From the IMG/VR virus record IMGVR_UViG_3300031753_000007, positions 1-60,168 of that record: a stretch of 60,168 nt of DNA, one strand, 5' to 3'. This document shows, piece after piece, positions 6,080 through 46,353 of this stretch (positions are counted from its first letter, which is position 1; every line of letters starts with the position of its first letter). The position numbers and the translations under genes were made by a program. Origin of the DNA: a virus (Duplodnaviria; Caudoviricetes). The notes beneath the pieces are model-generated. The model searched no databases. It saw nothing but the letters and a program-made list of their open reading frames with translations, and had not been told where the DNA came from.

Positions 6080-8023
6080 GTGGCCGCGATCGCCACCCTC
6101 AATCCGCTCAAGCCCTCCGCCGTACCCAGCGCGGGCGAGACCTATGAGGTCCACCTTCGCGGTTGGCTAACAGAGGCGCTTCAGGAAGGTCAGGCATTCC
6201 TCAGCAATTGCTACGGCTACGGCAAGACCGACGAGATCATCCGCGCCATCATGGGCGAGACCTACGAGGACAAGCTACGTCCGCGCGAGATTTCGAACCT
6301 CACCCTCAACCAGACTGGCAAGATCGGCCTTGACCTCGCGTCGTCGCTGACGGATATCAAGCCCTTCTGGGCCTATAAGACCAATAACGTCCGCTTCGAG
6401 CGCACCGCCGAGATGGCCCAGAAGCTCGCCTCCGCCTGGTACCCTCGCCGCCTCATCGACCTCAAATTCTGCGACGTGATCAAGTTCTCCCTCGCAGCCG
6501 GCACAGGCTACGCTCACAACGTCTACAACGAGGACATGCAAGACCTCGACCTCCAGGCCGAAGACCCCCGCGACGTCATCCCCATCCGCCCCAGCGACAA
6601 CTATTCGATCCAGAACGCCTTCGGTGTGGCCATCCGCCGCGAGCGCACGGTCAACTACCTCAAGCACCTCTACCCAGAGAAGGCGGGGCGCATCAAAGCC
6701 GACCGCTCCGGCAGCTACGCGGGCCTCTCGCAGCAGACCACCGCCCAGCGCCTCGTCGAGTCCCTCGGCCTCTCGTCGGGCTTCATGCAGAACCTCTGGG
6801 CCGCGGTCGGTGGCCGTCCTCACCAGCAGCTCTCCTCGATCCCCACCGCCGACCTCTTCACCATCTACGTCAAGGACGACTCCCTTAACCAGACCGGCAG
6901 CGCTCTCCTCATGGGCGAGCCCCACCGCAACTGGAGCTACATCGTCCAACCCGGCGAGCCCCTCTACCCGCGCAAGCGCGCCATCACCATGACCTCCTCA
7001 TGCATCCTGCGCGACGGCCCATCCATCTACTGGCACGGCCTCTTCCCCCTGGCGAAGCTCACCCTCGACCCCTGGCCCTACTCCCGCGCATGGCTCGGCA
7101 AGTCCCCCCTCCGCGACCTCCTGACCATCCAACGCGAGATCGACCAGACCGCCCGCGGCATCGCCGACAAGTTCCAAAAGTGCTGGCGCCCAGACCTCGT
7201 AGCCGACAAGACCGTCCTCTCGAAAGCCGGTGCCGACCGCATTGACACGCGCCGCGCCGGCCTGCGCATCAACGTCAAGCCCTCGGCCGGAGGCAAAGGC
7301 TTCGAACTCGTCGAGCCCAACATGCAGGGTGCTACGCTCGGCATGGAATGGCTGAAGCTCCTCGTGGAAGCTGCCAAGGAACTCAGCGGCACACAAGAGC
7401 TCACCTCCCTCGTCCAGCTCGGCCAGATCCCCTCCTCGGAAACGATCGAGCGCATGATCGAGTCTTGGTCCCCCGCCATCCGCCTCCGCTCCCGCGTGAT
7501 GGAAGCCTTCATGCGTGAGATGGCCATGATGGTGCTCTCGAACTTCTTCCAGTTCTACACCATCGCCCAGCGCGTCGCCTCCCTCGGCCCCGCAGGCCTA
7601 GACTTCGCAGACGCCGACCACGACCCCGGCACCCTCATCCCTGACTTCCTCGACCGAGGCTGGCTCGACTTGAGCGGCTCACCTCTGCCGCGTCCCGTGC
7701 GCGCCAAGGCCTTCCTCGACGAGTTCACCTACGAGATGGCCCCTGGTAGCCTGCTCGCGGCCAGTGAGGTGACCGACAAGCTCATGTACCTGCAGCTCAG
7801 CCGCATGGGCTTCGTCGACCCGTTGACGTTGCTGGAAAAGTTGGGCATCAACAACATCGCCCCAGCTAGCATGAAGGACCAGGCCGGCACGACCATCATG
7901 GAGCGCCTGCAGTGGGCTCAGAGCGTCGGCTTGAGCATGGCAGTCGGCCCTGCAGGCGCATCCGCCGCAGGCCGCAAGGCCACAGCCCAACAAATGCCCC
8001 GCATGACCGTGAAAGAAAGTTGA
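6080..8023 (+). CDS. Portal protein (P22-like size)
   Basis: 647 aa between terminase and capsid genes; GKSPLRDLLTIQREID, ELSGTQE portal-like segments. Confidence 0.85.
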   Translation: MAAIATLNPLKPSAVPSAGETYEVHLRGWLTEALQEGQAFLSNCYGYGKTDEIIRAIMGETYEDKLRPREISNLTLNQTGKIGLDLASSLTDIKPFWAYKTNNVRFERTAEMAQKLASAWYPRRLIDLKFCDVIKFSLAAGTGYAHNVYNEDMQDLDLQAEDPRDVIPIRPSDNYSIQNAFGVAIRRERTVNYLKHLYPEKAGRIKADRSGSYAGLSQQTTAQRLVESLGLSSGFMQNLWAAVGGRPHQQLSSIPTADLFTIYVKDDSLNQTGSALLMGEPHRNWSYIVQPGEPLYPRKRAITMTSSCILRDGPSIYWHGLFPLAKLTLDPWPYSRAWLGKSPLRDLLTIQREIDQTARGIADKFQKCWRPDLVADKTVLSKAGADRIDTRRAGLRINVKPSAGGKGFELVEPNMQGATLGMEWLKLLVEAAKELSGTQELTSLVQLGQIPSSETIERMIESWSPAIRLRSRVMEAFMREMAMMVLSNFFQFYTIAQRVASLGPAGLDFADADHDPGTLIPDFLDRGWLDLSGSPLPRPVRAKAFLDEFTYEMAPGSLLAASEVTDKLMYLQLSRMGFVDPLTLLEKLGINNIAPASMKDQAGTTIMERLQWAQSVGLSMAVGPAGASAAGRKATAQQMPRMTVKES

Positions 8024-8043: not shown

Positions 8044-8376
8044 ATGGCAGGAACCGCAGGCAAGCACGCCCCCTTCATGGGCTCCGTCACCGCCACCAAC
8101 ACCGCCCAGTCCCTCTTCAGCCTCCTCCAAGGCGTCTGGTCCGACATCACCGACCACATGTGCTTCATCCAGATCCAGCTCGACGTCTCCGCAGGCGGCA
8201 CGACCCTCTACATTGGCAACTCGAACGTCGCCTCGAACATGTGCGGCGCTGCCCTCGTCGCCAGCCAGATCGCCCAGCAGCTCGGCTTCGACTCTAACAT
8301 CCTCATCCCCAAAGACATCTACCTGCTCACCTCGACCGCCAGCGCCCAGGTGAACATCATCGCATTGGGGAGGTGA
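8044..8376 (+). CDS. Small beta-rich virion protein
   Basis: AGGAGG SD; TLYIGNSNV; head-gene context. Confidence 0.55.
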   Translation: MAGTAGKHAPFMGSVTATNTAQSLFSLLQGVWSDITDHMCFIQIQLDVSAGGTTLYIGNSNVASNMCGAALVASQIAQQLGFDSNILIPKDIYLLTSTASAQVNIIALGR

Positions 8377-8380
8377 CGTT

Positions 8381-9721
8381 ATGCGACGCCTACTTACCCT
8401 ACTTACGTTACTTACTCTAAGTGGCCTAGCTGCACACGCTCAGATGGGCAACACAGTCACCGTACCTTTCGCTGGCGCACCCTCCGGCTCCTGCTCGGTG
8501 ATCATGTACGCCATCAACACCTCTAATGGCGACTTCTACGACTGCCCATCAGGCTCATGGGTTAAGGTAGGCAGCTCAGGCGGTGCAGGCGTCTCCAGCG
8601 TCGGCCTGACCGTCAACAGCACCAGCCCATCCGGTATCTACACGGTCACCGGCAGCCCCGTCACTACCACCGGCACCCTCAACATCAATCTAGCAGGCAC
8701 CTCAGGCGGCGTCCCCTACTTCTCCAGTGGTACCGTCCTCTCCTCCTCAGGTGCCCTCACAGTGAACGTCCCAGTACTCGGAGGAGGCGCAGGCGCCACG
8801 CCCACCCCCAGCGCAATCGAGACCCACAGTGCCACCGCTGTCACCAACACAGGCACTGGCGGCTACACCCTCAATGGTACCGGCAACCAGATCACCTCTA
8901 CCCAAGGCACCATCACGACCTCTGCCCCCTTCACCACACATACCGTCACGTGGAACGCAGCTGGCGTCGCCTTCACGAACTGGCTCTCCAACCTTACCTG
9001 TACAGCTGCCGCTACAGGCTCGATTGCGGCAGGCTTCGGTACTGCTGGTACGCAATGGCAATTCAAGTATGGTGCCGCTAATTGCGCCAGCCCCCAATTA
9101 CTAAGTCCAGACGGTACTGTGGCACTTCCAGCCTATGCCTTCGGCGCAGCAACCGGCACAGGCTTCAGCCGCAATGGCGCCAACATCGTAGTTAGCATAG
9201 CGGGGGGAGCCCAGATATCACTGACGAGCTCTAGTGGAGTATCCCTAAACTCAGGAGATTGGTATGTCTGGTCTTCTACAAGTGATCCGACTGCCGCCCA
9301 CGACACATCGCTAGCGCGATCGGCGGCTAAGTCCGTACAGATCGGCGTCAACGGCGACTCGACCGGCAATATCAAAGTAGCTGCTTATAAAACAGATACT
9401 AACTGTGCAGCAGTCGGCACGGCAGCCAATCCTTCTGTGGCCTCCTGCACAGGAGCTACGGCTGGCTCCTTCTCCTGTGCCACGAACGCTTCTACGGGTA
9501 CCTGTACAGTGAACACGACCGCGGTGACAGTCAATAGTGAGATATTCATCGAGGGCCGTAACGATACGACTACAGGTACGCGCCTTGGCGTAACCTGTAA
9601 TACAGGCATCACCACGGCTCTTCCAGAGATATCAGCAGTCGTCGCGGCCACCAGCTTCACCATTAACTTAGGCACGTTCACTTCGAATCCTGAATGCTTC
9701 TCTTACTTCATCGTGAACTGA
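8381..9721 (+). CDS. Gly/Ser/Thr-rich fibre-like protein with Sec signal peptide
   Basis: GGAGGT SD; MRRLLTLLTLLTLSGLAAHA/Q leader; 10 Cys; GVSSVGL fibre-type motif. Confidence 0.65.
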   Translation: MRRLLTLLTLLTLSGLAAHAQMGNTVTVPFAGAPSGSCSVIMYAINTSNGDFYDCPSGSWVKVGSSGGAGVSSVGLTVNSTSPSGIYTVTGSPVTTTGTLNINLAGTSGGVPYFSSGTVLSSSGALTVNVPVLGGGAGATPTPSAIETHSATAVTNTGTGGYTLNGTGNQITSTQGTITTSAPFTTHTVTWNAAGVAFTNWLSNLTCTAAATGSIAAGFGTAGTQWQFKYGAANCASPQLLSPDGTVALPAYAFGAATGTGFSRNGANIVVSIAGGAQISLTSSSGVSLNSGDWYVWSSTSDPTAAHDTSLARSAAKSVQIGVNGDSTGNIKVAAYKTDTNCAAVGTAANPSVASCTGATAGSFSCATNASTGTCTVNTTAVTVNSEIFIEGRNDTTTGTRLGVTCNTGITTALPEISAVVAATSFTINLGTFTSNPECFSYFIVN

Positions 9722-10554
9722 TGAGGCTACTCCTACTCATCCCGCTGCTCTGCACCATCGCAACAGGCCAGACCTATCAGACATGGCTGAACGCCAAGGG
9801 TGACGTATACGGATGGGTATCGACTAACTCGTGGAAGCCACCTACAGGCCTAGTCATCCTCATTCTCTCCGGCACCTGCCCCACAGGATTCACCGAAGCC
9901 AGCGCTCTCAACGGCAAGATGCTCCGCGGCACGATCGCCGCGAACGGTGACGTGGGCACTACAGGCGGCAACGCGACCATCACACCTACAGGCACAGTGA
10001 GCACTCCAACGCTTACCATGAATGCCTACACGCCAGCTGGCACAGTCGCAGCCCCCGTGTTCACAGGCTCTGCAGGCATAGTTCCAGCACAGACCTTCAC
10101 CGGCTCAGCCGGTACAGTCCCGGCTCAGACTTTCACCGGAACCACAAGCCAAGTCACCTCTGCCACCAGCGCAGGTACGCCCGCAGGCACGAACGGTGCC
10201 ACCGCTACCTCCGGCAACTGTGCCGCTACTAACATCGCCGCAGGCACGGGCTCCACCACTGCCTGTAAGGCGACTGCCCCGAACCTGGCCGTCCCGGCAG
10301 AGACCTTCACCGGTAGTGCTCTCGCAACCCATACGCATACGCTTACTCCAGCTGGCACGAACTCCACAGCAGCCTTCACGCCCGCAGGCACAAACAGCAC
10401 TGCCGCCTTCACTCCAGCCGGCACAAACTCCGCCCCCGCCTTCACCGGCACGCAAGCTACGTTGACCGGATCCGTCAGTCAGCCAACCTTCACAGGCAAC
10501 GCAATCGACCCCAGCCCAGCATGGCTCAAGGTGATCTTCTGCTCCGCGAACTGA
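9721..10554 (+). CDS. Fibre/collar-like protein with signal peptide and TPAGT repeats
   Basis: MRLLLLIPLLCTIATG/Q; PTGLVILILSGTCPTGF and PAWLKVIFC collar-like ends. Confidence 0.65.
   Translation: MRLLLLIPLLCTIATGQTYQTWLNAKGDVYGWVSTNSWKPPTGLVILILSGTCPTGFTEASALNGKMLRGTIAANGDVGTTGGNATITPTGTVSTPTLTMNAYTPAGTVAAPVFTGSAGIVPAQTFTGSAGTVPAQTFTGTTSQVTSATSAGTPAGTNGATATSGNCAATNIAAGTGSTTACKATAPNLAVPAETFTGSALATHTHTLTPAGTNSTAAFTPAGTNSTAAFTPAGTNSAPAFTGTQATLTGSVSQPTFTGNAIDPSPAWLKVIFCSAN
10345..10449 (+). repeat. Three tandem 33-bp coding repeats (TPAGTNSxxAF)
   Basis: TPAGTNSTAAF, TPAGTNSTAAF, TPAGTNSAPAF in translation. Confidence 0.85.
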
Positions 10555-10625
10555 GGTAACATATGCAAATGCTTGACACGACCACTCATGACGTGCGTAA
10601 ATCGGCGCAAGCGGAGGACTAGCCA

Positions 10626-10814
10626 ATGGCCAAGAAGTGGATGCAGGCTGCCACCAAGAAGATGGAGGAGCACGGCACCAAGGGCAGCCTCACGCGCATC
10701 GCCAAGCGTCACGGCGAGAGCCCAATGGAATTCGCTCGTGAGCACTACCATTCCAAGGGTAAGGTCGGCGCGAAGGCACGTTTCGCCGTCAACGCCCAGA
10801 AGAGGTCGAAGTGA
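10626..10814 (+). CDS. Small basic protein
   Basis: GGAGG SD; MAKKWMQAA..AKARFAVNAQK. Confidence 0.8.
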   Translation: MAKKWMQAATKKMEEHGTKGSLTRIAKRHGESPMEFAREHYHSKGKVGAKARFAVNAQKRSK

Positions 10815-11050
10815 GCAACGGGGACGACGATATGGCCTCCTCAAAGAGCAGCACGCTCAGCGCCATCGGCAAAGAAATGCGCGACAATCCACCTGCGGTG
10901 CTTAACGCCACTCGTCGTAAATTTGGCGTCGCCCGGGCAGAGAAGCAACGCGTCGCCATCCTCTTGAGCAAAGGCCGTCAGGCCGGCGTCAAGATCCCTA
11001 AGCCCTCCTCGGGGGGCGGTAAGTCAATGTCCAACGGAGGAGGTTACTAG
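10811..11050 (+). CDS. Small basic protein
   Basis: KQRVAILLSKGRQAG; GTGA overlap, alternative ATG at 10832. Confidence 0.75.
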   Translation: MSNGDDDMASSKSSTLSAIGKEMRDNPPAVLNATRRKFGVARAEKQRVAILLSKGRQAGVKIPKPSSGGGKSMSNGGGY

Positions 11051-11051
11051 C

Positions 11052-11273
11052 ATGGCACACTACAAGGCACATGCGCATGAAGGCCATCACATGGCCCACA
11101 GCAAGCGAGCCGACCACCACGCCTCGCACCACGGCCACGAGCACTTCGGCAAGTCAGGCGGTGGCCACGGCGGCCTGCACACGAAGCTCGTCTCCAGCCC
11201 CATGAGCCCAGGCATGACGCCCAAAGGTGGTGGCAAATCGATGCACGGCAAGTCTCACGGCCACAACAAGTAA
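11052..11273 (+). CDS. His/Gly-rich basic protein
   Basis: GGAGG SD; 17 His in 73 aa. Confidence 0.8.
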   Translation: MAHYKAHAHEGHHMAHSKRADHHASHHGHEHFGKSGGGHGGLHTKLVSSPMSPGMTPKGGGKSMHGKSHGHNK

Positions 11274-11288
11274 CACACGAGGCGCATC

Positions 11289-11654
11289 ATGTCGGCAGCT
11301 CCGGTCTCGCTCAACGGTGGTCCCCCGCTTCCACCCAACCTCCAGCCTCAGCCACAGCCCACCGTGGCCGGTCTGGCAGGCCAGGGACCATCGCAGAATC
11401 CGGAGCAGCCTGGCGGTAGCGCCTCCCTACAACAGGCCGTCATTCAGCGCCTCATGTTTGTCGAAAGCGCCCTGAACGACGTTGGCAAGATGATGCCAGC
11501 CGCGGCACCTGTCGTAGACGGCTTGGTGAATCAGTTGCGCAAGGGTATGGGTGCGGTGCTCGCGCAAGGTGCGCAGCCTCCGCCTGCCCAAGGCCCCCCA
11601 ACCGGCTCCATGTTGATGGCCGGTGGCGGGATGGGTCAAGCGCCAAGTTCGTAG
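11289..11654 (+). CDS. Pro/Gly-rich head-module protein
   Basis: GAGG SD; helical core with disordered ends, upstream of scaffold. Confidence 0.7.
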   Translation: MSAAPVSLNGGPPLPPNLQPQPQPTVAGLAGQGPSQNPEQPGGSASLQQAVIQRLMFVESALNDVGKMMPAAAPVVDGLVNQLRKGMGAVLAQGAQPPPAQGPPTGSMLMAGGGMGQAPSS

Positions 11655-11727
11655 CAAGTGCAGTAGCTCCAAGTAACTAGGCACTGGCACCCCTCACGGG
11701 TAGGTGCTGGCAGTTCAAGGAGGAAGT

Positions 11728-12534
11728 ATGGCAGTAGACGTCAAGCAGTACGTGGACCAGCTGGCTCAGACGGCAGGCCTCTCTGACGAAGAGAAGGCAG
11801 GCATTCTGAAGGCTTTGGGAAACGAGAAGTTCGCCAAAGGTCTGCAAGAGGGAGTCGAGCTGCGCTCGGACTACTCTCGCAACATGGACGCCATCAAAGC
11901 CGAGCGGGACAAGCAGGCCAAGTTTTACCAGGACATGCTCGTCTGGCAGAAAGCGGAAGAGGACCGCCTCGCCGCAGCCTACAACCAGCTCAACCCAACC
12001 GTGAACCCACAACCGCAGCCCAACACATTCGATCCCGAGGCCTTCAAGAAGTCGCTCCTCGACGAGTTCAACAAGTCCGCCGCCCAGAAGGAGGCTAACT
12101 ACATCTCCCTCCTGAAGGATGCGGTCTCGCTTGGCACCCGTCATCTGTACGAGTTCAAGGAGCCTCTCGACACCGAAGTACTGGCTAAGACAGCCGTAGA
12201 CAAGGGCATGTCCCTGCGCCAAGCCTACGACGAGATGGTCGCCCCTCGCCGCACCGAACTGCAGCAGGCCGACTTCAAGGCCAAGCTAGCCGCGGCCAAA
12301 CTCGAGGGCGCCCAGGAGTTCGCGAACACGCACAAGATTCCACTCGACACTTCACCGCGCGAGTACCACCCCATTCTGGATAAGCCCTCCGGCGCCGTCA
12401 CGGACTACGTACCCAACAGTGGCCGCCTGACCCCCCAGAGTGAGCGTGTCCTCCGCGACAACTTCGCCTCGGAGTGGGAAAAAGAGGGAGCCCGTCAATC
12501 CGCCCTAGAGCGGGTCGGCACCTCTGGCACGTAG
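11728..12534 (+). CDS. Capsid scaffolding protein
   Basis: AGGAGG SD; RSDYSR motif, coiled-coil, directly before MCP. Confidence 0.75.
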   Translation: MAVDVKQYVDQLAQTAGLSDEEKAGILKALGNEKFAKGLQEGVELRSDYSRNMDAIKAERDKQAKFYQDMLVWQKAEEDRLAAAYNQLNPTVNPQPQPNTFDPEAFKKSLLDEFNKSAAQKEANYISLLKDAVSLGTRHLYEFKEPLDTEVLAKTAVDKGMSLRQAYDEMVAPRRTELQQADFKAKLAAAKLEGAQEFANTHKIPLDTSPREYHPILDKPSGAVTDYVPNSGRLTPQSERVLRDNFASEWEKEGARQSALERVGTSGT

Positions 12535-12599
12535 CACGCGACACCACAAGATGACGTCACAGGCGTCTCCTGATCGGGTCCGTGCGCAATAGGTAAATT

Positions 12600-13685
12600 G
12601 TGGCAGAACTCGATCAGTTAAACGTAAGCACCCGTCGCTATATCCGCGACAACCCTGCCCTGGTCGATGACTGGTCGCAGAACGATCCGCTCATCGCCTA
12701 CCTCAAGCTCAATGTCCGCGAGAGCTACACGGGCGGCACCCTCATCCAGGAAGGCTTCACCTTCGACGGTCTGATCGGCAGCTCCTACCTCAAGGGCAAG
12801 GAGTTCAACATCACTGAGAAGCAGGTCGAGCAGGCGAAGCAGTTCACCATGAAGTTCTTCGAGGTCGGCGTCACGCTCTCGCAGGAAGACGTCGAGGTCC
12901 TCAACAAGGGCCCGCTCGCAGTCTTCAACCTCATCGACAGTCGCATGACCACGGCCTACCAGACGCTTGGCGTCCAGATGGCCATCGCTCAGTACCTCAA
13001 CGGTATCAATGCGGGTTACACGCCCAACTTCAACGGTCTGCCCGAGGCCCTGAACGACAACTCGACCAACTCGTGGGACGGCAATACCTATCCTACCTAC
13101 GGCGGCATCACGCGCGGTGGCCAGGTGGGCAGCTCCCTCAACTCGACGCCCACCAACGTCGCCGGCCCGATCCTCTACACGACGCTAGAGAACACCTACG
13201 GCAACGCTGAGTTCGGCAACATCCAGCCCAACCTCGGCGTGACCACTGTCAAGGGCTACTCCTACATCAAGGAGAAGTTCCAGACGCAGCAGCGCTTCAA
13301 CGATACGCAGGACCCGGCGATCGGCTTCAACGGGATGAAGTTCAACAGCGCTACCCTAATCAAGTCGCGCTACGCTCCCGGCTCCGACATCGGCCAGACC
13401 TCTCCGCAGACCACGACCAACAACACGGCCGTCCAGTACCTGCAGGAGATGTCAGGAGGTGCTGTCACCGCCTACCCGACCATCACCACCGAGACCTTGT
13501 GGTGGCTCAACGCCCGCAAGCCTTTCCTGAACTTCTACATCTCAGACTCGCCTAAGTTCGGGTTCGGCTTCACCGGCTTCAAGCCGGCACAGGGCAACAC
13601 CAAGGTTGTGGGACAGGTGCTCGCCGCATGCGCGATCACCCTCGACCCAAGGTATCATCAACAGTTGTATGGAATCTCCGCATAG
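12600..13685 (+). CDS. Major capsid protein
   Basis: 361 aa; GGTLIQE, FNGLPEA, TYGGITR, GFNGMKFNSA, PRYHQQLYGI; position after scaffold. Confidence 0.85.
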   Translation: MAELDQLNVSTRRYIRDNPALVDDWSQNDPLIAYLKLNVRESYTGGTLIQEGFTFDGLIGSSYLKGKEFNITEKQVEQAKQFTMKFFEVGVTLSQEDVEVLNKGPLAVFNLIDSRMTTAYQTLGVQMAIAQYLNGINAGYTPNFNGLPEALNDNSTNSWDGNTYPTYGGITRGGQVGSSLNSTPTNVAGPILYTTLENTYGNAEFGNIQPNLGVTTVKGYSYIKEKFQTQQRFNDTQDPAIGFNGMKFNSATLIKSRYAPGSDIGQTSPQTTTNNTAVQYLQEMSGGAVTAYPTITTETLWWLNARKPFLNFYISDSPKFGFGFTGFKPAQGNTKVVGQVLAACAITLDPRYHQQLYGISA

Positions 13686-13775
13686 TCCTGATTCCATTGG
13701 ACTTAGCGGTGTAGTGAAAGGTGAGCTAGCCGAGCTCCCCATGCACGAGTTGCAACCGGCAAAAGGAGACCACCA

Positions 13776-14366
13776 ATGCCTTATGGACGTATAGATCCAA
13801 CCATGTACGTGGGGCCGTTCTCGAACATCGAACGCATGAACGCCACCACGCTCTACAAGCCCGGGGAGCTCGGCTCTCAGATCCAGGTTAACCAGCGCGG
13901 CTACCAGCTCGTGCAAGTGGACAGCGGCGCAACCGCATCCACTGGCGCAGGCCACGCCCCGCAAGGCGGCGACCTCGCCTTCTGGAAGGACAAGACCAAG
14001 TGGCTCGTCACTAACGACCGCGTACAAGCGGCAGGTGGCGTCACCAATTCCCGCAACATGGTGGCAGGCGTCTTCTGCTCGATTACGCAGGGCGCATCGG
14101 GCACCGCCTCGATCACCCCAGGTAACTTCGGCGTGATCCAGCAGCGTGGCCAGCATACGGGCGTCCTCACCTCAGCCTCGACCGTCACCGCAGGCCTGGC
14201 GCTGATCGTCAGCTCCTCGTCCACTGTGCCCGACGCCACCAACAGCGCGATCGGCGTCGCTCCACTCACGCCCATCGTAGGTATCGCCACCGCCGCCAAC
14301 GGCGCCGTGACCGCCACCTACACCCCTGCCACTCTTGGAGGCTGGGACTTGGTCGACGTACCGTAA
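13776..14366 (+). CDS. Capsid decoration/cement-like protein
   Basis: Follows MCP; YQLVQVD, GNFGVIQQRG. Confidence 0.6.
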   Translation: MPYGRIDPTMYVGPFSNIERMNATTLYKPGELGSQIQVNQRGYQLVQVDSGATASTGAGHAPQGGDLAFWKDKTKWLVTNDRVQAAGGVTNSRNMVAGVFCSITQGASGTASITPGNFGVIQQRGQHTGVLTSASTVTAGLALIVSSSSTVPDATNSAIGVAPLTPIVGIATAANGAVTATYTPATLGGWDLVDVP

Positions 14367-14379
14367 AGGAGGAGACGCA

Positions 14380-14628
14380 ATGGCCGTACAGACACCGGAC
14401 GCCAACTCACGTTTCGATAACGTGGTTGGCAACATACGCCAAGTCACGGCACGCTTCGCCTCCGTGGCCAATAACGATACCTGGGCAACTGGCCTCGGCA
14501 CTATCACCTCGCTCTCGATGGATTCTGGGACATCAAGTGCGATCGGGGCCACGACCTCAGGGGGCACTGTAACCTTCGTGACAGGCGGCACAGTCACGGG
14601 AGTTCAGGCCCAGATCCAGGGATTCTAG
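14380..14628 (+). CDS. Small virion protein
   Basis: AAGGAGG SD; beta-rich. Confidence 0.65.
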   Translation: MAVQTPDANSRFDNVVGNIRQVTARFASVANNDTWATGLGTITSLSMDSGTSSAIGATTSGGTVTFVTGGTVTGVQAQIQGF

Positions 14629-14649
14629 CGCTCAGGAAGGAGACGCAGT

Positions 14650-15585
14650 GTGCTCAGCACATACGACGGTCTGGTTCGCCAAGTATTGTTGCGCTGCCCC
14701 TCTGCGTCTCTTTTCCTAGCAAGAGAATGGCTGGACTACGCGTTCCGTCAACTCTGGGACACGCGTCTCTGGAGCTGGCAGCGCCGCTTCAGCCAGTTCC
14801 TTCTCATGCAGCAGTACGGCACGGGCCTCGTCAACGTTACCCGTGGTTCCACCACCGTCATAGGCGTCGGCGCGACCTTCACCTCCTCGATGGTGAACGC
14901 CCAGTTCCGTGTCGGCACTCAGACTCCCATCTACACCATCGCCAGCTTCACCAGTGCCACACAGATCGACCTCAACCAAGTGTGGGGTGGCAACAGTGCC
15001 AATGGCGTCACTTACTCTATCTACAACGCCTATGTCACCGCTCCAAGCGACTTCCAGAACTTCGTGACCGTTTGGGATCCCCTTTTTAACTGGCAACTTG
15101 AGACCAACGTTACGCAGGAAGAGCTGAACGCATGGGACGCCCAGCGTGCGAATACGGGCACGGCCTATGTAGTCGCAAGCCTTTACTACGACGTTAACGT
15201 GAACAATCCGCCGCTGCCGATGTTCGAGATCTGGCCGCACCAGCGTGCACAGTACGTATACCCCTTCATCTATGTGTCGCGTCCACCTGACCTCAGTGAC
15301 CCTGGCGCAACGCTTCCTCGTTATATAAGAGGCGACGTGCTCTTAGAGAGTGCACTCGCCCAATGCGCTCGTTGGCCCGGTCCTGCACGCGACGCAGCGA
15401 ACCCATACTTCAATCTTGCGACTGCCACCATGCACGACAAACGCTACGCCGAGATGGTCCGCCAGATGGAAATCACGGATGACAACATCATGGAAAATGA
15501 TGTGACCTACGTAAGTCTGTCGGCAATGCCTTTTGCCTCAATTCCCTATGGAGACGCGCGTTTCCTTCAAAATCATGATATCTGA
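14650..15585 (+). CDS. Head-tail adaptor/ring protein 1 with inserted beta domain
   Basis: N-terminal helices (WLDYAFRQL..WSW), FEIWP..YVSRPPDL..LP adaptor pattern. Confidence 0.65.
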   Translation: MLSTYDGLVRQVLLRCPSASLFLAREWLDYAFRQLWDTRLWSWQRRFSQFLLMQQYGTGLVNVTRGSTTVIGVGATFTSSMVNAQFRVGTQTPIYTIASFTSATQIDLNQVWGGNSANGVTYSIYNAYVTAPSDFQNFVTVWDPLFNWQLETNVTQEELNAWDAQRANTGTAYVVASLYYDVNVNNPPLPMFEIWPHQRAQYVYPFIYVSRPPDLSDPGATLPRYIRGDVLLESALAQCARWPGPARDAANPYFNLATATMHDKRYAEMVRQMEITDDNIMENDVTYVSLSAMPFASIPYGDARFLQNHDI

Positions 15586-15607
15586 CACTTACTAAGGAGG
15601 CACCACA

Positions 15608-15805
15608 ATGGCACAACGACGTGGACCGATCGAGACCCCGGACGACTTCGTACCCGGCAAGGACGCCTATGACGCAACTGAGGACTGTACCTACGACGGC
15701 CTCGACGGTGAACCCTACTCCAAGCACAAGGGCACAGGCGGCAAGATCAAGGAAGTTACGCTGGATCAGGAGGGCGTCTTCGGTCGCGTCCCCCAGGAGG
15801 ACTGA
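15608..15805 (+). CDS. Small acidic protein
   Basis: AAGGAGG SD. Confidence 0.7.
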   Translation: MAQRRGPIETPDDFVPGKDAYDATEDCTYDGLDGEPYSKHKGTGGKIKEVTLDQEGVFGRVPQED

Positions 15806-15809
15806 GCCA

Positions 15810-18800
15810 GTGCGCCTGCGCCTCGCCGTTCTCGCTGGCCTCCTCGCTCTCGTGTGCCTGCCTGCGCACGCCGTGGACATCTATGCCCGCTACAATGGCA
15901 ACTGCATGCAGGGAGGATCGCCGGTCACCGTCAATGGTATCCAGTCCTCGCAGAAGGTCATGCAGTCGTTCCCTGGCGCGGGCTGCTCGGTCACTGTCTT
16001 CCTACATGGCACGCTGACGCTCGCATCCATCTTCTCCGATGCCGGGGGCCTGTTCCCTCTCGCCAATCCGTTCAGCGCTACTTCCACAGGCATCGCGGCT
16101 TGGTACAGTGCTGACGGCCGCTACGATGTGCAATACGGGGGCACCTCGATCACCTCTCCCTTCACTATCTCTGATATCGGTCTCTGCTTCTCTTGCGTAG
16201 GTGGCACAGGTACAGTCACATCCTCTGGCAGCCCCGTCGCGGGCAACATCCCTAAGTTCACCAGCCCCACGAACATCGCGCCCGCAGCAGCAACCGATCT
16301 CATCGCCCTCTGGAGCGGCACCTGCAACGCCAGCACCTTCCTGCGCGGCGACGGTGCCTGTGCCACAGCTGGAGGCGGCACCCCAGGCGGCTCTAACACG
16401 CAGCTTCAGTTCAACAACTCCAGTGCCTTTGGGGGCATCACCAACGTCGCAGGTGGCTCCCTGTTGGCTTCCGGTGGAGTCAGCACCACACCCAGTTTCC
16501 AGGTCAAGGCCATCTACGATACGCGCGACTGGATGACCTGCGACGGTTCAACCGACGCCAGCTCCGGGATGAACAGCCTGCTCTCAGCCATTGGCACGGC
16601 CGAGGCCTCCATTCGTTTCATCGGTTCCTCGAACGCTAGCGCCGCCTGTCGCATTGGTAATACCTTCTTCCCCGCTAACGTATCGCTTGATTTCTCGGGT
16701 GGTGGCGCTCTGCAGCTCATCAGCTCCTCCACTGTCATCGGTGGAGGCAGTTATGTCAACGGCACGAGTGTCGAATGTGGCACGGGCACGACCTGTAGCC
16801 TTCCTGCTCTAAGCGTCACAGCAGGCAATACGATCGTGGTCATGGAGGCGCCCTATCCAGGCTTCACTTTCAAAACAACGAAGGTGGCCGACTCTTGCGG
16901 CAACTTTTATATCCACGTTTTCCAGTCGCTTGCCAATCAGCCGCGTAACCAGGGTGCATGGGTCGCTTCAAATGTTAGCGCTGGTGGAGGTACCTGCATC
17001 ATCACCGCTACCACCAATGGCTCTGTGACCACCCATATGATGCTCGCTGCCCAAGTGACTGGTATGGGACCAGTGACTGCCCTCGATACCAGCGCCTCCG
17101 CAAACAGTACAGGCACAACCATGAGCAGTGGCGCTGCTACGACACTCACAGGTGCCTTCCTGCTTGGCTTTGGTGGCCAGCCCTTCACGTCAGAAACATG
17201 CACCGCGGGCGCTGGTTATACACAGCCAGCAAGCGTGGCTGGCCAGTCTACGAATGGCCATATCTGCGCTGAGTATAAGAACGTCTCAAGTGGAGGCTCG
17301 ACCACTGCCACCCAGACCATTACTTCCGACCCTTCCCCCGGCACTTGGGTCTACAGCCTGATCTCGCTTAAGCCTGGCAATGCCACAGGTACGATCTGGG
17401 GCGGCATCATCAATCCAGATCGCCACCAGATCTTCCTGAACGCGGACAGTGCCACTGGCCATGGCGTGATCGACTTTACTGGATCCCCCATCACGTTCGA
17501 CATTTACCCGGAGTGGTGGGGGGCGTCTTCCAATGCGACCGGGGCTACAAACACACCTGCCATCCAAGCTGCGATCTGGGCAGCTTATGGCGGCGGCCAA
17601 ACTCAGGCGCGTACCAATGCCAGTGGTCTCGCCGTCTACAATCGGCCCCTGCGCATCACCAGCTCCTACCCGATCAATGGTGAGCTGAAGATGTACGACG
17701 TGATCGGCTTCCAGATGTTGGGCGTGAACCGCCTCTTCTCCGGCTTCACCCAGAACACAGCTAACCTGCGCATCATTGACGGCCAAGCCATTGCGTATGG
17801 AGAATTCTCCGATCTCAACTTCACGAACGCCGCTAGCTCAACCAATGCCCAAGTCGACTTAGACTTCAATGGGACCTCGACGCCTAACGATCTGCGGCCG
17901 CAGTTCATAGACTTCCATCGCGACAACTTCGTCGGCAACAATCAGACCGATGTCGGCGTCCTCATCGCTAAGTCGGGGGGCACCGCCCAAGGCTCCAATA
18001 TCCAATGTTACGACTGTGCGTCTGTCGGCTTCACGGGAGCTGCATGGCAGATTGGTGGCAACAATACCGGGCGTAACGCTGGGCGATTCTATGCGTTGAA
18101 TGCCCTCGCACTTGGCTACACCGGAGACATCCAAGGATGCCCTCTCTATGGCATCGCTGTCTATGGAGGAGGCTACATTAGCGTCGGCGGCGACACCGGC
18201 ACCGGCATGACCACCATGGAGAACGGATTCTCCACGCAGACCGGCTTCGACATGTACTGTGAGGCGACGCAGGGCCCCTGCATCATGGATCACGTCCGCT
18301 CCGAGAGCCGCCGCCTGATCGCAGGCAGCAATATCCACGTGAAGGATAGTCGTACGCTGAATCAGTCGGCCTTCCCGACGCCAGGCAACACTTTCCCAGT
18401 CTTCCCTACCGTGGGCTCGATCATTCAAGGCTCCGCGGTCGGCGGCGATGGCCACTACTATAAGGTTACAGGCCAGACATCAGCCTTTGGCGGTGTGGGC
18501 ACGCCAGCGGCACCTGTATTGGCGAGTAGCGGCAGCACAACCACTGTGGCGAATACCAACGAGACCGTCGCAGGATCACTTACAATCAAGGCTTTCACCG
18601 CGCTGGAAACGGTCACGCAGGCCGTCACCGGAGCCTCTGGCACCTTGCTGAATCTGCCCACTTCTACGGGCACCATCACCGGCTCCGTGGCAACTGGCAC
18701 GATCGGTAGCGGTGATACCATGACCCAAGCTACGTCGGGCGTTACCTGCACGTCCAGCAATACTCCTACGGGGACGCAGTCGCTGCTCTGTACCAACTTC

Positions 18801-20279
18801 TCGGGCACCGCCGACAACAGTCACACATGGACGGATGGCACGACAAGTGGCACTTACGCACCAACGGCCGCTCCAACATTCTCCGTGTCCAGCCCTCCTA
18901 TGTTGATCACTGCTCACACAGGAGCCCCGGACAACTCGCATGACTGGGTAGGTGGCACCAGCGCTGCACACTATACGCCCACAGCTGTCCCGGCTGGCGC
19001 TGGCTACACCGTGAACGCCTTCGCCGGGTTCCGGGCCTCCATTCTAAGTGGCACTAACGTAGGCTGCTACGGCGTGGTCGTATCGAATACCGCAACCGTG
19101 ATCACCGTGTCCAGCTGGCTGACTAACTACCAGTTCGTCCCCTGTACAGCCCCCGACAGCACATCTAGCTTCGTAGTAGAGCCCAATTGGGGTACTCAGA
19201 CGACAAGTGGCGGCATGACTTGGGCTGACATGGCTGAGAATGGGATTGAGAATAATCTGGGCTCTGGCCTAGGTCTCGCTGTCATCGAGGATACGGATGT
19301 GCCAGGCGATACTATCTCCATAGCAGGCCCCTATGTCAGCCTAAAGAACACGAGCGTCACCCGTAACGACTGGCTTGTGCTACCATCAGGCAATGCCTTT
19401 AATTCGCATTCAGTCAATGATCTTGACCTAGACGTCTATAACTCGATAACGATTACGCAAGCAGGTCACACACGCTATCAGAACTGGGCTATCCCTCGAC
19501 TTACAACAGGAGGAACGCCTACTACATACAATGGCACCCTCTCCCATTACGTCGGCACTAAGCCGATGATCTGGAGCTGCGGCGACGAGACTACCGGGAT
19601 TGCCTGTAACGATACATGGATCGGGGGGCGCACCAACTCGAATGCGGCGCATGACGCCACGCTGACAATCCTAGAGTACGGTGGCATGCTGGGCCGCGCG
19701 ACACCGTTCGGTACGAATCAAGCTGGTACGGATACGGACATGACAGGTGGACCGTCAACAGGCAGCGCGAATGGTGGTGCAATTAACTTCTGGACCTCTA
19801 ATCCTGGAGGGTCGGGTACAACCGTCAACTCTGGCCTGAAGCGGTGGCTGGTCTCGACCGCTGGGCACTTCTTCACGGGCCTTGACAACACCTATGACAT
19901 AGGGGCGACGGGAGCCAATCGGCCACGCAATATCTATGCTGCCACCCAGTTCATCTCGCAGGTAGCGACAGGTACGGCACCTATCGTGGTGTCGTCGACC
20001 ACACCGGTAGCTAACCTGACGGCTGTACCTACGACCTACAATCATTCAGGTACGCAAGCCACTGGCGCTCATGTCGTACAGGACCGCTGTACGCTCGGGA
20101 CGAGCTGCTCGGTGACGCTGACGGGATCTGCTGTCTACACGAGCTCAAGTACCTACGACTGTGTCGCCATTGACCGTACGGGGGCGAATGCGATTCAGTT
20201 CGCACCGTCGTCAGGCAGTGCCTTCGCACTTACAGGCACGGGGACGGATGCGATCTCATATGTCTGCGTGGGGAACTGA
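15810..20279 (+). CDS. Large tailspike/fibre (beta-helix, depolymerase-like) with Sec signal peptide
   Basis: AGGAGG SD before GTG 15810; RLRLAVLAGLLALVCLPAHA/V; head-binding-like VTVFLHGTLTLASIFSD..NPF..GRYDV; PEWWGA..NTPAIQAAI beta-helix cap; PGGSNTQLQFN, DNTYDIG fibre motifs. Confidence 0.75.
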   Translation: MRLRLAVLAGLLALVCLPAHAVDIYARYNGNCMQGGSPVTVNGIQSSQKVMQSFPGAGCSVTVFLHGTLTLASIFSDAGGLFPLANPFSATSTGIAAWYSADGRYDVQYGGTSITSPFTISDIGLCFSCVGGTGTVTSSGSPVAGNIPKFTSPTNIAPAAATDLIALWSGTCNASTFLRGDGACATAGGGTPGGSNTQLQFNNSSAFGGITNVAGGSLLASGGVSTTPSFQVKAIYDTRDWMTCDGSTDASSGMNSLLSAIGTAEASIRFIGSSNASAACRIGNTFFPANVSLDFSGGGALQLISSSTVIGGGSYVNGTSVECGTGTTCSLPALSVTAGNTIVVMEAPYPGFTFKTTKVADSCGNFYIHVFQSLANQPRNQGAWVASNVSAGGGTCIITATTNGSVTTHMMLAAQVTGMGPVTALDTSASANSTGTTMSSGAATTLTGAFLLGFGGQPFTSETCTAGAGYTQPASVAGQSTNGHICAEYKNVSSGGSTTATQTITSDPSPGTWVYSLISLKPGNATGTIWGGIINPDRHQIFLNADSATGHGVIDFTGSPITFDIYPEWWGASSNATGATNTPAIQAAIWAAYGGGQTQARTNASGLAVYNRPLRITSSYPINGELKMYDVIGFQMLGVNRLFSGFTQNTANLRIIDGQAIAYGEFSDLNFTNAASSTNAQVDLDFNGTSTPNDLRPQFIDFHRDNFVGNNQTDVGVLIAKSGGTAQGSNIQCYDCASVGFTGAAWQIGGNNTGRNAGRFYALNALALGYTGDIQGCPLYGIAVYGGGYISVGGDTGTGMTTMENGFSTQTGFDMYCEATQGPCIMDHVRSESRRLIAGSNIHVKDSRTLNQSAFPTPGNTFPVFPTVGSIIQGSAVGGDGHYYKVTGQTSAFGGVGTPAAPVLASSGSTTTVANTNETVAGSLTIKAFTALETVTQAVTGASGTLLNLPTSTGTITGSVATGTIGSGDTMTQATSGVTCTSSNTPTGTQSLLCTNFSGTADNSHTWTDGTTSGTYAPTAAPTFSVSSPPMLITAHTGAPDNSHDWVGGTSAAHYTPTAVPAGAGYTVNAFAGFRASILSGTNVGCYGVVVSNTATVITVSSWLTNYQFVPCTAPDSTSSFVVEPNWGTQTTSGGMTWADMAENGIENNLGSGLGLAVIEDTDVPGDTISIAGPYVSLKNTSVTRNDWLVLPSGNAFNSHSVNDLDLDVYNSITITQAGHTRYQNWAIPRLTTGGTPTTYNGTLSHYVGTKPMIWSCGDETTGIACNDTWIGGRTNSNAAHDATLTILEYGGMLGRATPFGTNQAGTDTDMTGGPSTGSANGGAINFWTSNPGGSGTTVNSGLKRWLVSTAGHFFTGLDNTYDIGATGANRPRNIYAATQFISQVATGTAPIVVSSTTPVANLTAVPTTYNHSGTQATGAHVVQDRCTLGTSCSVTLTGSAVYTSSSTYDCVAIDRTGANAIQFAPSSGSAFALTGTGTDAISYVCVGN

Positions 20280-20972
20280 ATGCCGTACGCGCAAGTCACC
20301 CTCGCCCAGCTCCGTAGTTACTTCTACGAGCAGGTCGGCGGGAACACGGCCTTCTGGAGGACGGATGAAGTCGACCGTATCCTGCAAGAGAGCGTGCGCG
20401 TGTTCAACTGCCTCACTGGCTTCTGGCGGGGCCGCGTCAACTTAGGCCTCACGGTCGCAGGGCAGCACTGGTATAACGTCCCGTCAGGTCTTACCTATAT
20501 CCTGCGCGTAGAGGCAGATCAGGTACCACTCGGCTCCTCCTCGTTATGGGATCTCGACTATGGGCAGCCTGCATGGGAGAGTGAGACTGCGAGCGCAAGC
20601 GACCCAGCGCCTAAAGTGTTTGCTCCCGCGGGCGTCAACCTGTTCGCTCTATGGCCTGCGAGCTTTGCAGGCACCGAGAGCCTCGTAGTCGATGGCGTCA
20701 CACCCGCTCCCGTGCTCACGACGGTCGGCTCCATCGACCTCGGCCAGAGCGAGCTGACGACCATCCTCAACTATGCCCAGCACATCGCGCAGTTCAAGGA
20801 AGGCGGGCAGGAGTTCGAGGCCTCGCAGCTCTGGCTGCAGGACTTCCTCAAGGATGCTGGCGGACGCAACGCCATACTCATGAATAGCAGTAAGTTCCGC
20901 AATTGGATGGGGTTGACGGATCGCAAGAAGCGTCCCATCCATAAGCCTGAGCAACGCGTAGGAGCGAGGTGA
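20280..20972 (+). CDS. Head-tail adaptor/ring protein 2
   Basis: TLAQLR..FWRTDEVDRILQES..GQHWYNVP..LWP. Confidence 0.7.
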   Translation: MPYAQVTLAQLRSYFYEQVGGNTAFWRTDEVDRILQESVRVFNCLTGFWRGRVNLGLTVAGQHWYNVPSGLTYILRVEADQVPLGSSSLWDLDYGQPAWESETASASDPAPKVFAPAGVNLFALWPASFAGTESLVVDGVTPAPVLTTVGSIDLGQSELTTILNYAQHIAQFKEGGQEFEASQLWLQDFLKDAGGRNAILMNSSKFRNWMGLTDRKKRPIHKPEQRVGAR

Positions 20973-22036
20973 TGGCCGTCACCGACCAGGAAGTCGAGGC
21001 CAACGTTATCTACCGCCTGCTGGAGAATGGCAACGCAGACGCTTCCCCTGCGCCTGTGACGGCCATCACCCTGACGCTCTCTGGCGGCGCCCATACCTAC
21101 AAGTTCTTCAACGTCTGGTTCCCGATCGGTGCAGGCGTCTCCATCCTAGGCCAGAGCTATACCGAGACTGTCATCATCAACAACATCGGTGCCGCCTCGA
21201 TCCTTGTGCAGGACAACTTCGGTCACAGCCAGGTTATCCCCGCGCTGACGCAGGCGAATGTGTCTCTAGTATCCACAGGCGATGGCGTGACCTTGCTGCA
21301 GATCCTGATCGGCGCGGTGAATCCCGCTGACACGGTCCAGATGATCGCATGGAGCCCGTTCATCCAGAAGACCGGGACAGGCATCAACCTGATCCCCTTT
21401 GCGAATCAAGGCTTCCTCGGTTGGGGCCAAGATATCGGCGTGACTGCCACCATCATTCCCATCAATCCCCTGTTGACCACCATGTTCACTGTCCAACAGA
21501 TCTTCGACTCGATGAACCGGGTGCAGCAGAAATTCCTGCTCGACACAGGTATACACTGCGTGCGTACGACGATCGGTGGGGTCGTGGGCCAAGGCACCTA
21601 TGCGTTGCCTGTGGACAGTACACGTCCCCGTCGCCTCACCTGGACCGACTCGACTGACCTCAAGACACGGGCCCTCACGCAAGTCGACACTTGGGAACTT
21701 GACCAGGGCTTCCCAGACTGGCCCAGCGATCAAGCCATCCCCATCGTATGGTGGGAGACCACGCTTCCGCAGCAGCAGGTGGGCCTCGCTAAGACGCCAG
21801 CGAACAACGGCACCATTGGCCTGCTCTACGTGCAGCTCGCCGCGACGCTCGCGGGCACAGGCGTGACGCTGGTGGTCCCGGACGACTGGAGCCCTTACAT
21901 CCTGTGGGGGACGCTGGCGGAGTTACTCAGTGCTGATGGCCAGTCCTTCGACCCTCTACGCGCCCAATACTGCCGCCGTCGCTACGAGGAAGGCGTGGAA
22001 CTCGCACGCTTGGTGCTGGGAGGGAGCTGGACGTGA
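20969..22036 (+). CDS. Head-tail adaptor/ring protein 3 with inserted domain
   Basis: MNRVQQKFLLDT..GQGTYALP..VPDDWSPYILWGTLAELL. Confidence 0.7.
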   Translation: MMAVTDQEVEANVIYRLLENGNADASPAPVTAITLTLSGGAHTYKFFNVWFPIGAGVSILGQSYTETVIINNIGAASILVQDNFGHSQVIPALTQANVSLVSTGDGVTLLQILIGAVNPADTVQMIAWSPFIQKTGTGINLIPFANQGFLGWGQDIGVTATIIPINPLLTTMFTVQQIFDSMNRVQQKFLLDTGIHCVRTTIGGVVGQGTYALPVDSTRPRRLTWTDSTDLKTRALTQVDTWELDQGFPDWPSDQAIPIVWWETTLPQQQVGLAKTPANNGTIGLLYVQLAATLAGTGVTLVVPDDWSPYILWGTLAELLSADGQSFDPLRAQYCRRRYEEGVELARLVLGGSWT

Positions 22037-31777: not shown

Positions 31778-32041
31778 ATGCGCTCCCTCTCCATGGCGCA
31801 GTGGAAGATGGGATGGGGATTCCTGCTTCTAGCTGGCATCTTGGGCCTTTGCGCCAGGATCGCTTTGGGCCACGTAGAGCAGCAGACCTCCTACGGTCTG
31901 ACAGAGATCATTGGCATTCTGGCAGTGCTCGCGGGGCAATGGGCCAACTGGGCCTTTGGGGAAAGCCGTAGCTCCTCGAAGACTGAGCCCACCGCGTCAT
32001 TAGAATCAAGCAGTTCCGCAAGTCGTAACGAGCCGCAATAG
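31778..32041 (+). CDS. Two-TM holin-like protein
   Basis: Two hydrophobic helices, WAFGES. Confidence 0.55.
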   Translation: MRSLSMAQWKMGWGFLLLAGILGLCARIALGHVEQQTSYGLTEIIGILAVLAGQWANWAFGESRSSSKTEPTASLESSSSASRNEPQ

Positions 32042-32082
32042 GCCGTTACGCCTTCGGAACACTGTGCTAGTAACCTAAAGAT

Positions 32083-32604: not shown

Positions 32605-32614
32605 GAGGCACGCG

Positions 32615-39191: not shown

Positions 39192-39195
39192 TTAC

Positions 39196-41323: not shown

Positions 41324-41329
41324 TTACGG

Positions 41330-46349: not shown

Positions 46350-46353
46350 GCGC

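Follow-up and report, generated by a model that had tools for sequence, protein, structure and literature searches.

The 60,168-base window analyzed here is the whole of IMG/VR virus record IMGVR_UViG_3300031753_000007, a podophage (short-tailed-phage-type) genome. Three genes of its structural module encode proteins that begin with predicted signal peptides: protein 1 (8381-9721, 446 amino acids), protein 2 (9721-10554, 277 amino acids), and a tailspike-like protein referred to below as the spike (15810-20279, 1489 amino acids). The analysis suggests that these genes are host-recognition gear, comprising one beta-helix tailspike and two fiber-like proteins. Leaders on host-recognition proteins occur in hundreds of uncultured relatives and in several cultured phages. 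From the sequence evidence, we judge the chance to be slightly better than even that the three proteins are exported, folded with disulfide bonds in the periplasm, and joined to particles at lysis.

Leaders and start codons

The N-termini read MRRLLTLLTLLTLSGLAAHA/QMGNT for protein 1, MRLLLLIPLLCTIATG/QTYQT for protein 2, and (GTG)RLRLAVLAGLLALVCLPAHA/VDIYA for the spike, where the slash marks the predicted cleavage site. All three have a canonical n-h-c build. The n-regions are MRR-, MR-, and (M)RLR- with net charges of +2, +1, and +2, the best 10-residue windows of the h-regions have mean hydropathies of 2.45, 2.82, and 2.93 with no charged residue, and the c-regions are small at -3 and -1 (AHA/Q, ATG/Q, and AHA/V). 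Lipoproteins carry a lipobox Cys at +1, and the twin-arginine translocation (Tat) motif is S/T-R-R-x-F-L-K. No Cys follows the cleavage region in the three proteins, and the Cys within the leader of protein 2 is preceded by P-L-L, which is no lipobox. A pair of arginines is found in protein 1 only, and the homologues of protein 1 have a single K/R. An identity as signal-anchor-release (SAR) segments was ruled out as well, as the leaders are Leu-rich with AxA-type sites and come without a muralytic domain. The three leaders are thus predicted to be of the canonical Sec/signal-peptidase-I type. A preliminary description of this DNA had stated that three structural-module genes begin with signal peptides, and both the genes and their leaders are as it described them.

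Leaders were scored with a rule that combines a net positive n-region, an uncharged h-region of 10 residues whose Kyte-Doolittle hydropathy averages 1.8-1.9 or more, and small residues at -3 and -1. The rule flags 5 of the 84 called open reading frames (ORFs) of the window, namely the three fiber and spike genes, a small ORF of the lysis region (31778), and a lipoprotein-type ORF on the minus strand (34208); the latter two both lie near the lysis genes.

The leaders are conserved as a feature, with sequences that diverge freely in the three families while the n-h-c pattern is retained. At E<=1e-3, 511 homologues of protein 1 were found. Among the best 120, 103 satisfy the rule, and most of the remaining 17 are N-truncated or have a leader that is recognizable by eye but escapes it. 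About three members of this family (P0079, P0120, and P0158) appear to be truly leaderless. Protein 2 has 613 cluster representatives at the same threshold, and the rule finds leaders in 125 of its top 150. A search with the N-terminal third of the spike yielded 39 proteins; 35 score as leader-bearing, and the other 4 are N-truncated or devoid of K/R. The neighboring leaderless tail protein of 311 amino acids served as a control: among the best 120 of its 282 homologues, none is flagged. A small-x-small site followed by Gln is present in 78, 72, and 64 % of the three families, compared with 9 % of the control. Because the leaders are conserved across families with the control at 0/120, they are not chance stretches. 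The preliminary description had named a lack of leaders in homologues as grounds for giving up its proposal, and the counts run the other way. Cultured phages also have such leaders, on Tunturi_1 gp12, gp13, gp14 (annotated "tail spike"), and gp16, on Burkholderia phage BgManors32 gp48 ("tail protein"), and on BcepNY3 gp50 ("tail fiber protein").

Gln is the usual residue at +1 of the predicted site across the three families (proteins P0003-P0431), and it also stands there in proteins of an Acidobacteriota phage (Tunturi_1 gp12, gp13, and gp16). This preference resembles the Gln-after-signal-peptidase rule known from Bacteroidota.

Could the leaders be an annotation artifact, with the true starts lying after them or with chance hydrophobic stretches taken for leaders? 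Codon 22 is indeed a possible start in protein 1 (ATG) and in the spike (GTG). These internal start codons are, however, unconserved among homologues, and no Shine-Dalgarno sequence precedes the internal start candidates of the three genes. Shine-Dalgarno sequences are found only at starts that include the leader (GGAGG for protein 1 and AGGAGG for the spike). Protein 2 has no in-frame start within codons 2-50; its ATG overlaps the preceding stop (TGATG), and an alternative ATG upstream at 9694 would still include the leader. The upstream part of the long spike ORF (15621-15809) is taken up by a separate 65-amino acid gene in a different frame, whose GC by codon position is normal. Together with the control family, these observations make an artifact highly improbable, and translation starting downstream of the leaders, a weakness that the preliminary description had allowed for, is unlikely. 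Isoforms from dual starts were ruled out, as the internal starts are unconserved and lack Shine-Dalgarno sequences.

Protein architecture, cysteines, and sister spikes

The body of the spike is modeled as a right-handed parallel beta-helix tailspike. The AlphaFold2 model of residues 1-1150 has a mean predicted local distance difference test (pLDDT) score of 62, with confident blocks at residues 60-125 and about 570-860. A Foldseek search of this model against the PDB returned 36 matches at E<=1e-3, nearly all of them phage tailspikes or depolymerases. CBA120 TSP2 comes first (1.2e-7), and the list includes tailspikes of Acinetobacter and Klebsiella phages, Sf6, and Dettilon, as well as WceF (6e-5). 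The TM-scores by query are low (0.09-0.15) because the model is many-domained and has a mean pLDDT of 62. The spike belongs to no Pfam family (to E<=10) and to no PHROG.

The domain that follows the spike leader had been described as head-binding-like. The domain itself is real and conserved, with 39.6 % identity to Tunturi_1 gp12 and, by hhalign, a 98.4 % probability of matching the extreme N-terminus of the leaderless tailspike of Pseudomonas phage KT1. The P22 type (PF09008) was rejected, however, as Pfam gives no match at E<=10 and hhalign of the domain profile against residues 1-130 of P22 gp9 gives 0.14 %. The sole hint at Head_binding is an Atlas feature similarity of 0.91 to a cluster with PF09008 in 73 % of its members. 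At the other end of the spike, the C-terminal domain is of the same kind as the ends of BcepNY3 gp50 and Bcep1 gp51.

Protein 1 has no Pfam and no PHROG match. Its AlphaFold2 model (mean pLDDT 71) consists of a leader helix, a small N-terminal beta module, a low-confidence shaft rich in Gly, Ser, and Thr, a beta-sandwich, and a confident C-terminal domain. Foldseek against BFVD gave 32 matches at E<=1e-3 to phage proteins named "K1 capsule-specific polysaccharide lyase C-terminal domain"; matches in the PDB were weak and were to C-terminal parts of phage depolymerases and tailspikes, the best at E 0.03 to a Klebsiella phage depolymerase. The N-terminal "Cys-loop" module, searched as a strict motif, heads members of all three families (13/120, 4/150, and 1/39), and the same N-terminal modules are placed on differing fiber bodies. 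The C-terminal domain of about 105 residues retains 50-85 % identity on very different bodies, its terminal motif closes 100 of 120 homologues, and its six Cys columns are 99-100 % conserved. The idea that this domain serves as a dock for protein 2 was dropped, as a protein-2-like gene lies directly 3' of it in only 6 of 24 loci (L005, L006, L015, L017, L020, and L023). The pairing is frequent, not general.

For protein 2, Atlas features lead to Gp10_C (T4) and Collar clusters (0.89-0.90) and structure rows have TM-scores of 0.31-0.39, all of which are leads only. Membership in Collar (PF07484) or Gp10_C (PF21939) was rejected, as Pfam gives no match even at E<=10. A tblastn search of 50,697 phage records with proteins 1 and 2 found no match, and PDB sequence searches with the three proteins gave nothing useful. 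Structure matches and Atlas leads, in place of Pfam or PHROG, are the reason for placing all three proteins among phage fiber and spike kinds.

The mature proteins contain 10, 4, and 29 Cys (protein 1, protein 2, and the spike), corresponding to densities of 2.35, 1.53, and 1.98 %. The 21 other structural-module proteins have 0.49 % (30 in 6146 residues), making the difference about 4-fold. Ser and Thr together make up 28.8, 29.5, and 24.1 %. The Cys counts given for proteins 1 and 2 in the preliminary description, and its remark that all three proteins are Ser/Thr-rich, agree with these values.

The slot after the tail protein allows spikes with and without leaders to be compared. A single-query search of IMG/VR with the 311-amino acid tail protein found no locus, whereas a scan with its alignment found 28 loci, mainly on 58-68-kb contigs. 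At 20 of these loci, the tail protein is followed within 1.5 kb by the start of an ORF of 250 or more amino acids, and at 7 of the 20 this ORF carries the spike N-domain. The domain has a leader in L033, L034, L052, and L057 and is leaderless in L041, L053, and L047 (a tandem pair). The leaderless sisters occupy the same slot with the same N-domain and begin with MQR(V/I)QGW..., exactly at the mature start of the leader-bearing proteins (MQRVQGW... aligns with .../KLQGWC...). Finding leader-on and leader-off copies at one slot argues that the protein is a particle spike in either form. Of 16 leader-bearing copies, 12 have both Cys of the N-domain pair (C32 and C59 of the precursor), and in 4 the two have been replaced jointly. 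The pair is absent from all five leaderless copies, the sisters and KT1 taken together (Fisher p=0.006 against 12/16, uncorrected for kinship). Joint presence and absence is the pattern that would be expected of a disulfide, and from its distribution the leader appears to travel with a disulfide-type feature. Oxidative folding, as the preliminary description had proposed, is strengthened in part, in that the six invariant Cys of the protein 1 family and the leader-linked pair of the spike fit an oxidizing compartment; the bonds themselves are predicted.

The two leaderless tailspike genes of L047 stand in tandem after the tail protein (8426-13140 of that locus). The second of them has 2 Cys in 757 residues and an insertion of about 70 residues inside the N-domain.

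Some of these observations would also suit proteins that keep their N-termini and are never exported through Sec. The segment might then be a tether on the cytoplasmic face, a tag for assembly or timing, or a stretch that enters the host envelope during infection, with assembly in the cytoplasm. Tailed-phage assembly is, to our knowledge, cytoplasmic in every case studied, the leaderless homologues function without the segment, and many phage tailspikes, such as P22 gp9, are reduced despite being rich in Cys. A tether, however, needs neither conserved small residues at -3 and -1 nor a frequent Gln at +1 across hundreds of divergent leaders. The homologous domain in leaderless copies begins at the very site of predicted cleavage, and a reducing compartment would give little reason for a domain of 105 residues to keep six invariant Cys. 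We regard retention of the N-termini as improbable.

Proposed assembly route and its alternatives

The major capsid protein of the window is 28 % identical to those of the cultured podoviruses Tunturi_1 and Tunturi_2, which are described as infecting Tunturiibacter (Acidobacteriota) (PMC11924767). The window phage is a distant relative of both, and a Gram-negative soil bacterium like theirs is its probable host. We infer export, cleavage, disulfide bonding, virion membership, and the time of joining, and we picture them as follows. Each protein would be made late with a cleavable Sec leader and threaded into the Gram-negative periplasm, where the leader would be lost to signal peptidase I at AHA/Q, ATG/Q, or AHA/V. 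Folding and trimerization would take place in the periplasm with the formation of disulfide bonds. Heads and tails would be built in the cytoplasm and would meet the spikes and fibers only once the inner membrane has been opened by holin, or in the lysate, and the exposed N-terminal modules would then dock on the tail. Lysis looks holin-gated, since the endolysin-like genes are leaderless.

Virion membership of the three proteins is plausible from their genes and sequences. They lie inside the late structural operon, where one start is coupled and stop codons adjoin start codons. The structural genes examined hold no leaderless fiber or spike candidate, which leaves these three as the only fiber- or spike-like proteins of the phage. 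The preliminary description had proposed that the appendages are exported and then joined to particles. Conserved leaders, supported starts, and a plausible place in the virion now stand behind that idea, with export and joining themselves still proposals. The display on the infected cell that it offered as an alternative has found no specific support.

A related possibility is that the proteins are exported but never enter the particle and instead function as enzymes or adhesins of the infected cell, either free or bound to its envelope. Such proteins would cut or mask host exopolysaccharide or receptor from within the envelope, thereby easing release, preventing progeny from sticking to debris, or excluding superinfection. 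The leaders and the Cys patterns fit this explanation equally well, and exported tailspike-like enzymes of bacteria have been described, such as Pantoea WceF. Xanthomonas phage PBR31 gp40 is described as a leader-bearing esterase like tail-associated hydrolases, for which its authors proposed an aid to lysis. The genes at 8381 and 9721 are oddly placed between portal and scaffold, and the module moves among unrelated phages. On the other hand, the phage would be left without a recognizable receptor-binding protein. The N-terminal modules are shared and exchangeable, as anchor domains are, the N-domain of the spike is that of leaderless tailspikes at the same locus, and counterparts in the Cellulophaga phage phi18:3, which is considered below, were found in virion preparations. 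Export without virion membership is in our view a possible but unlikely explanation.

The C-terminal domain of protein 1 was used to ask whether the family is one of phages or of cells. As a single query, this domain found no locus in the species genomes, and a narrow alignment of it found three in a set of one genome per species (185,579 species). One of the three lies in a Terracidiphilus metagenome-assembled genome (MAG), and two are on phage-sized contigs of a betaproteobacterial MAG. A near-identical pattern found 21 loci in IMG/VR, and the family therefore appears, by this distribution, to be phage rather than cellular. Leader-bearing spike and fiber genes cluster together at the C-terminal-domain loci. 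In L007, they are flanked by the capsid and tail genes of a phage otherwise without detectable similarity to the window. This grouping and the occurrence in unrelated phages point to a mobile phage host-range cassette.

Several observations weigh against periplasmic folding followed by joining at lysis. The leader calls rest on a crude home-made rule and on inspection, and the scanned ORFs showed no disulfide or export helper encoded by the phage. Mature spike has an odd number of Cys. The five leaderless copies represent about three independent lineages, which makes the test of leader against Cys pair a weak one. The leaderless homologues are themselves rich in Cys (KT1 2.0 %, L041 2.3 %, and L047a 1.7 %, within a range of 0.3-2.3 %), so that Cys density alone is no marker of export, and their presence in the same slot means that the leader is dispensable for the job of the protein. 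In phi18:3, the leader-bearing proteins gp085-087 have only 0-3 Cys, and disulfides are therefore not the point there. Their detection by tandem mass spectrometry (MS/MS) is silent on cleavage and route, and co-purifying material could also explain it.

If the proposed route is correct, it would matter in several ways. Tailed-phage morphogenesis is taught as purely cytoplasmic. Completion of the particle would come to rely on host Sec, signal peptidase, and disulfide machinery, all of them new host factors and points of resistance. Disulfide-stabilized spikes would help to explain phage persistence in acidic soils, and such depolymerases would have to be expressed in the periplasm for recombinant production. 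It is an even question whether many soil and aquatic tailed phages use such a two-compartment assembly, in which capsid and tail are cytoplasmic, receptor-binding proteins are exported through Sec, fold in the periplasm (with disulfide bonds in this lineage), and are added only when holin breaches the membrane, and gain or loss of a leader, with a matching change in Cys pairs, switches the route of a given tailspike. This pathway, if true, would be undescribed for Caudoviricetes, with the final step to infectivity reliant on host Sec and Dsb.

Gene context and known systems

The window has a G+C content of about 60 % and a direct terminal repeat of 251 bases (1-251 and 59918-60168) with a single mismatch at position 128. 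Because of this repeat, the record is taken to be a whole genome that is either terminally redundant or circular and assembled with an overlap. No tRNA genes were found in the 60,168 bases. The minus strand carries replication and glycosyltransferase genes. The endolysin-like genes match Peptidase_M15_4 (1.6e-11) and a Glucosaminidase-like family (9.5e-5, under the Pfam cut-off).

Table 1. Features of the window in and around the three leader-bearing genes
Feature	Position	Strand	Remarks
Portal	6080-8023	+	phrog_156
Protein 1 leader, residues 1-20	8381-8440	+	MRR, then LLTLLTLLTLSGLA, then AHA/Q
Protein 1, N-terminal "Cys-loop" module of the mature protein (C38...C55)	8441-8575	+	small beta domain, pLDDT 74-84
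Protein 1, conserved C-terminal domain (...NPECFSYFIVN)	9383-9718	+	pLDDT >90
Protein 2 leader	9721-9768	+	ATG/Q
Fiber-like protein 2: leader, then collar-like core, repeats, ...KVIFCSAN end	9721-10554	+	277 amino acids
Probable scaffold	11704-12534	+	position only
Major capsid	12600-13685	+	phrog_9953, E 7.9e-15
Leaderless tail protein, 311 amino acids	14650-15585	+	PHROG tail and tail-fiber N-part matches
65-amino acid ORF before the spike start	15608-15805	+	own Shine-Dalgarno; codon-position GC 0.68/0.42/0.73
Spike leader, residues 1-21	15810-15872	+	..LPAHA/V
Spike, N-terminal domain of the mature protein, residues 22-130, Cys pair C32/C59	15873-16199	+	pLDDT ~90 over 60-125
Spike, C-terminal domain (...ISYVCVGN)	20037-20276	+	45.7 % identical to BgManors32 gp48 end
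Two SU10-adaptor-like genes, directly 3' of the spike	20280-20972, 20969-22036	+	PF24175, E 5.8e-6 and 1.1e-10
1238-amino acid protein (family unassigned), then Gly/Ala/Gln-rich internal-type proteins		+	
Lysis genes: small membrane/leader-type ORF (31778) and two leaderless endolysin-like genes	31778-33118	+	
GT2	38442-39191 and 39196-39792	-	
Weak Galactosyl_T match	39786-40544	-	
Glyco_tranf_2_5	42255-42971	-	
GT1/GT4, including a "GT4-conflict" match	44649-46631	-	

The 311-amino acid tail protein is a candidate docking platform for the spike. A complex prediction of this protein with spike residues 22-130 gave a score of 0.00 in two runs without controls, which weighs neither way. Residues 58-130 of the tail protein match a PDB entry named "distal tail protein gp20" (E 6e-4), and some of its homologues carry PF24175 SU10_adaptor among precomputed matches. 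The window may hold three SU10-adaptor-like paralogues, the tail protein and the two genes after the spike.

A leaderless ORF of 110 amino acids (8044-8376) lies directly 5' of the protein 1 gene and may encode a fiber partner or chaperone. Small leaderless ORFs also accompany such genes elsewhere: the fiber gene of L017 is preceded by a beta-rich one (552-785), and another (12814-13134) comes after the spike gene of L008. Between the fiber pair and the scaffold are a 73-amino acid ORF rich in His and Gly (11052-11273; MAHYKAHAHEGHHMAHSKRADHHASHHGHEH...) and two small basic ORFs (10626-11050).

The glycosyltransferase cluster on the minus strand (38442-46631) comprises at least four or five genes. 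Its targets could be DNA, in a modification, host polysaccharide, in a conversion, or the Ser/Thr-rich fibers. A 598-amino acid internal-type protein (29225-31021) has a sub-threshold match to GGDEF (diguanylate cyclase) over residues 436-556 (E 1.7e-4; 21.8 bits, where the cut-off is 23.8). On the minus strand, the family A DNA polymerase (35110-37809; PF00476, E 5e-26) carries an N-terminal domain of the uracil-DNA-glycosylase superfamily (PF03167, E 2.5e-17).

Among known systems, the spike has the overall build of P22 gp9, Sf6 gp14, CBA120 TSP2, and the depolymerases of Klebsiella and Acinetobacter phages, with a putative N-terminal anchor, a predicted right-handed beta-helix body, and a C-terminal domain. 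The classical tailspikes differ in that they are leaderless and fold and attach in the cytoplasm or lysate, and the N-domain of the window spike is not their P22-type Head_binding domain. Pantoea stewartii WceF is likewise described as an exported tailspike-like beta-helix glycanase, whereas its gene is cellular and sits in an exopolysaccharide cluster, outside any phage structural operon.

Late proteins that use Sec are known from lysis. Lys44 of fOg44, which has a true signal peptide, and the SAR endolysins are reported to stay outside the cytoplasm until holin fires (PMC6116005). In contrast to the window proteins, these are lysis enzymes and not particle parts, and SAR domains have no cleavage region, whereas the window leaders have one. 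In the literature covered, which leaves aside most subscription journals, leaders are discussed for endolysins, spanins, Lom, and an esterase, and for no tailed-phage fiber or tailspike.

Leader-bearing fiber and spike genes are found beside baseplate genes in BgManors32 (gp48), BcepNY3 (gp50), and Bcep1 (gp51), which share with the spike both Sec-type leaders and a C-terminal domain ending in ...C(V/A)GN. These are cultured myoviruses with contractile tails and Pseudomonadota hosts, and the likeness is confined to the last 80-100 residues. The gp11-gp14 region of Tunturi_1 and Tunturi_2 (PP887698 and PP885685) shares its gene order with the window, in that a leaderless tail protein (gp11) is followed by a leader-bearing large protein with a homologous N-domain (gp12). 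In Tunturi_1, gp12, gp13, and gp14 are all leader-bearing and have 20, 10, and 21 Cys; the spike bodies are unlike that of the window. The terms "signal peptide" and "mass spectrometry" do not occur in the main text of the Tunturi paper (PMC11924767).

The Cellulophaga phage phi18:3 (Pachyviridae; KC821620) is a cultured podovirus whose consecutive large proteins gp085-087 carry Sec-type leaders (MKKTIYILSILLLTISGVSA/Q and similar). The GenBank record lists them as "structural protein" on the basis of experimental MS/MS proteomics, and it indicates that leader-bearing spike-like proteins can occur in virion preparations. Phage phi46:3 has leader-bearing homologues of these proteins, and RefSeq calls the relatives of gp086 pectate lyase. 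The phi18:3 proteins differ from those of the window in lacking sequence similarity to them, and the host belongs to Bacteroidota. Sister spikes with and without leaders offer a natural comparison for the effect of the leader, and cultured examples of phages with leader-bearing proteins are available in Tunturi 1-3 on Tunturiibacter and phi18:3 on Cellulophaga.

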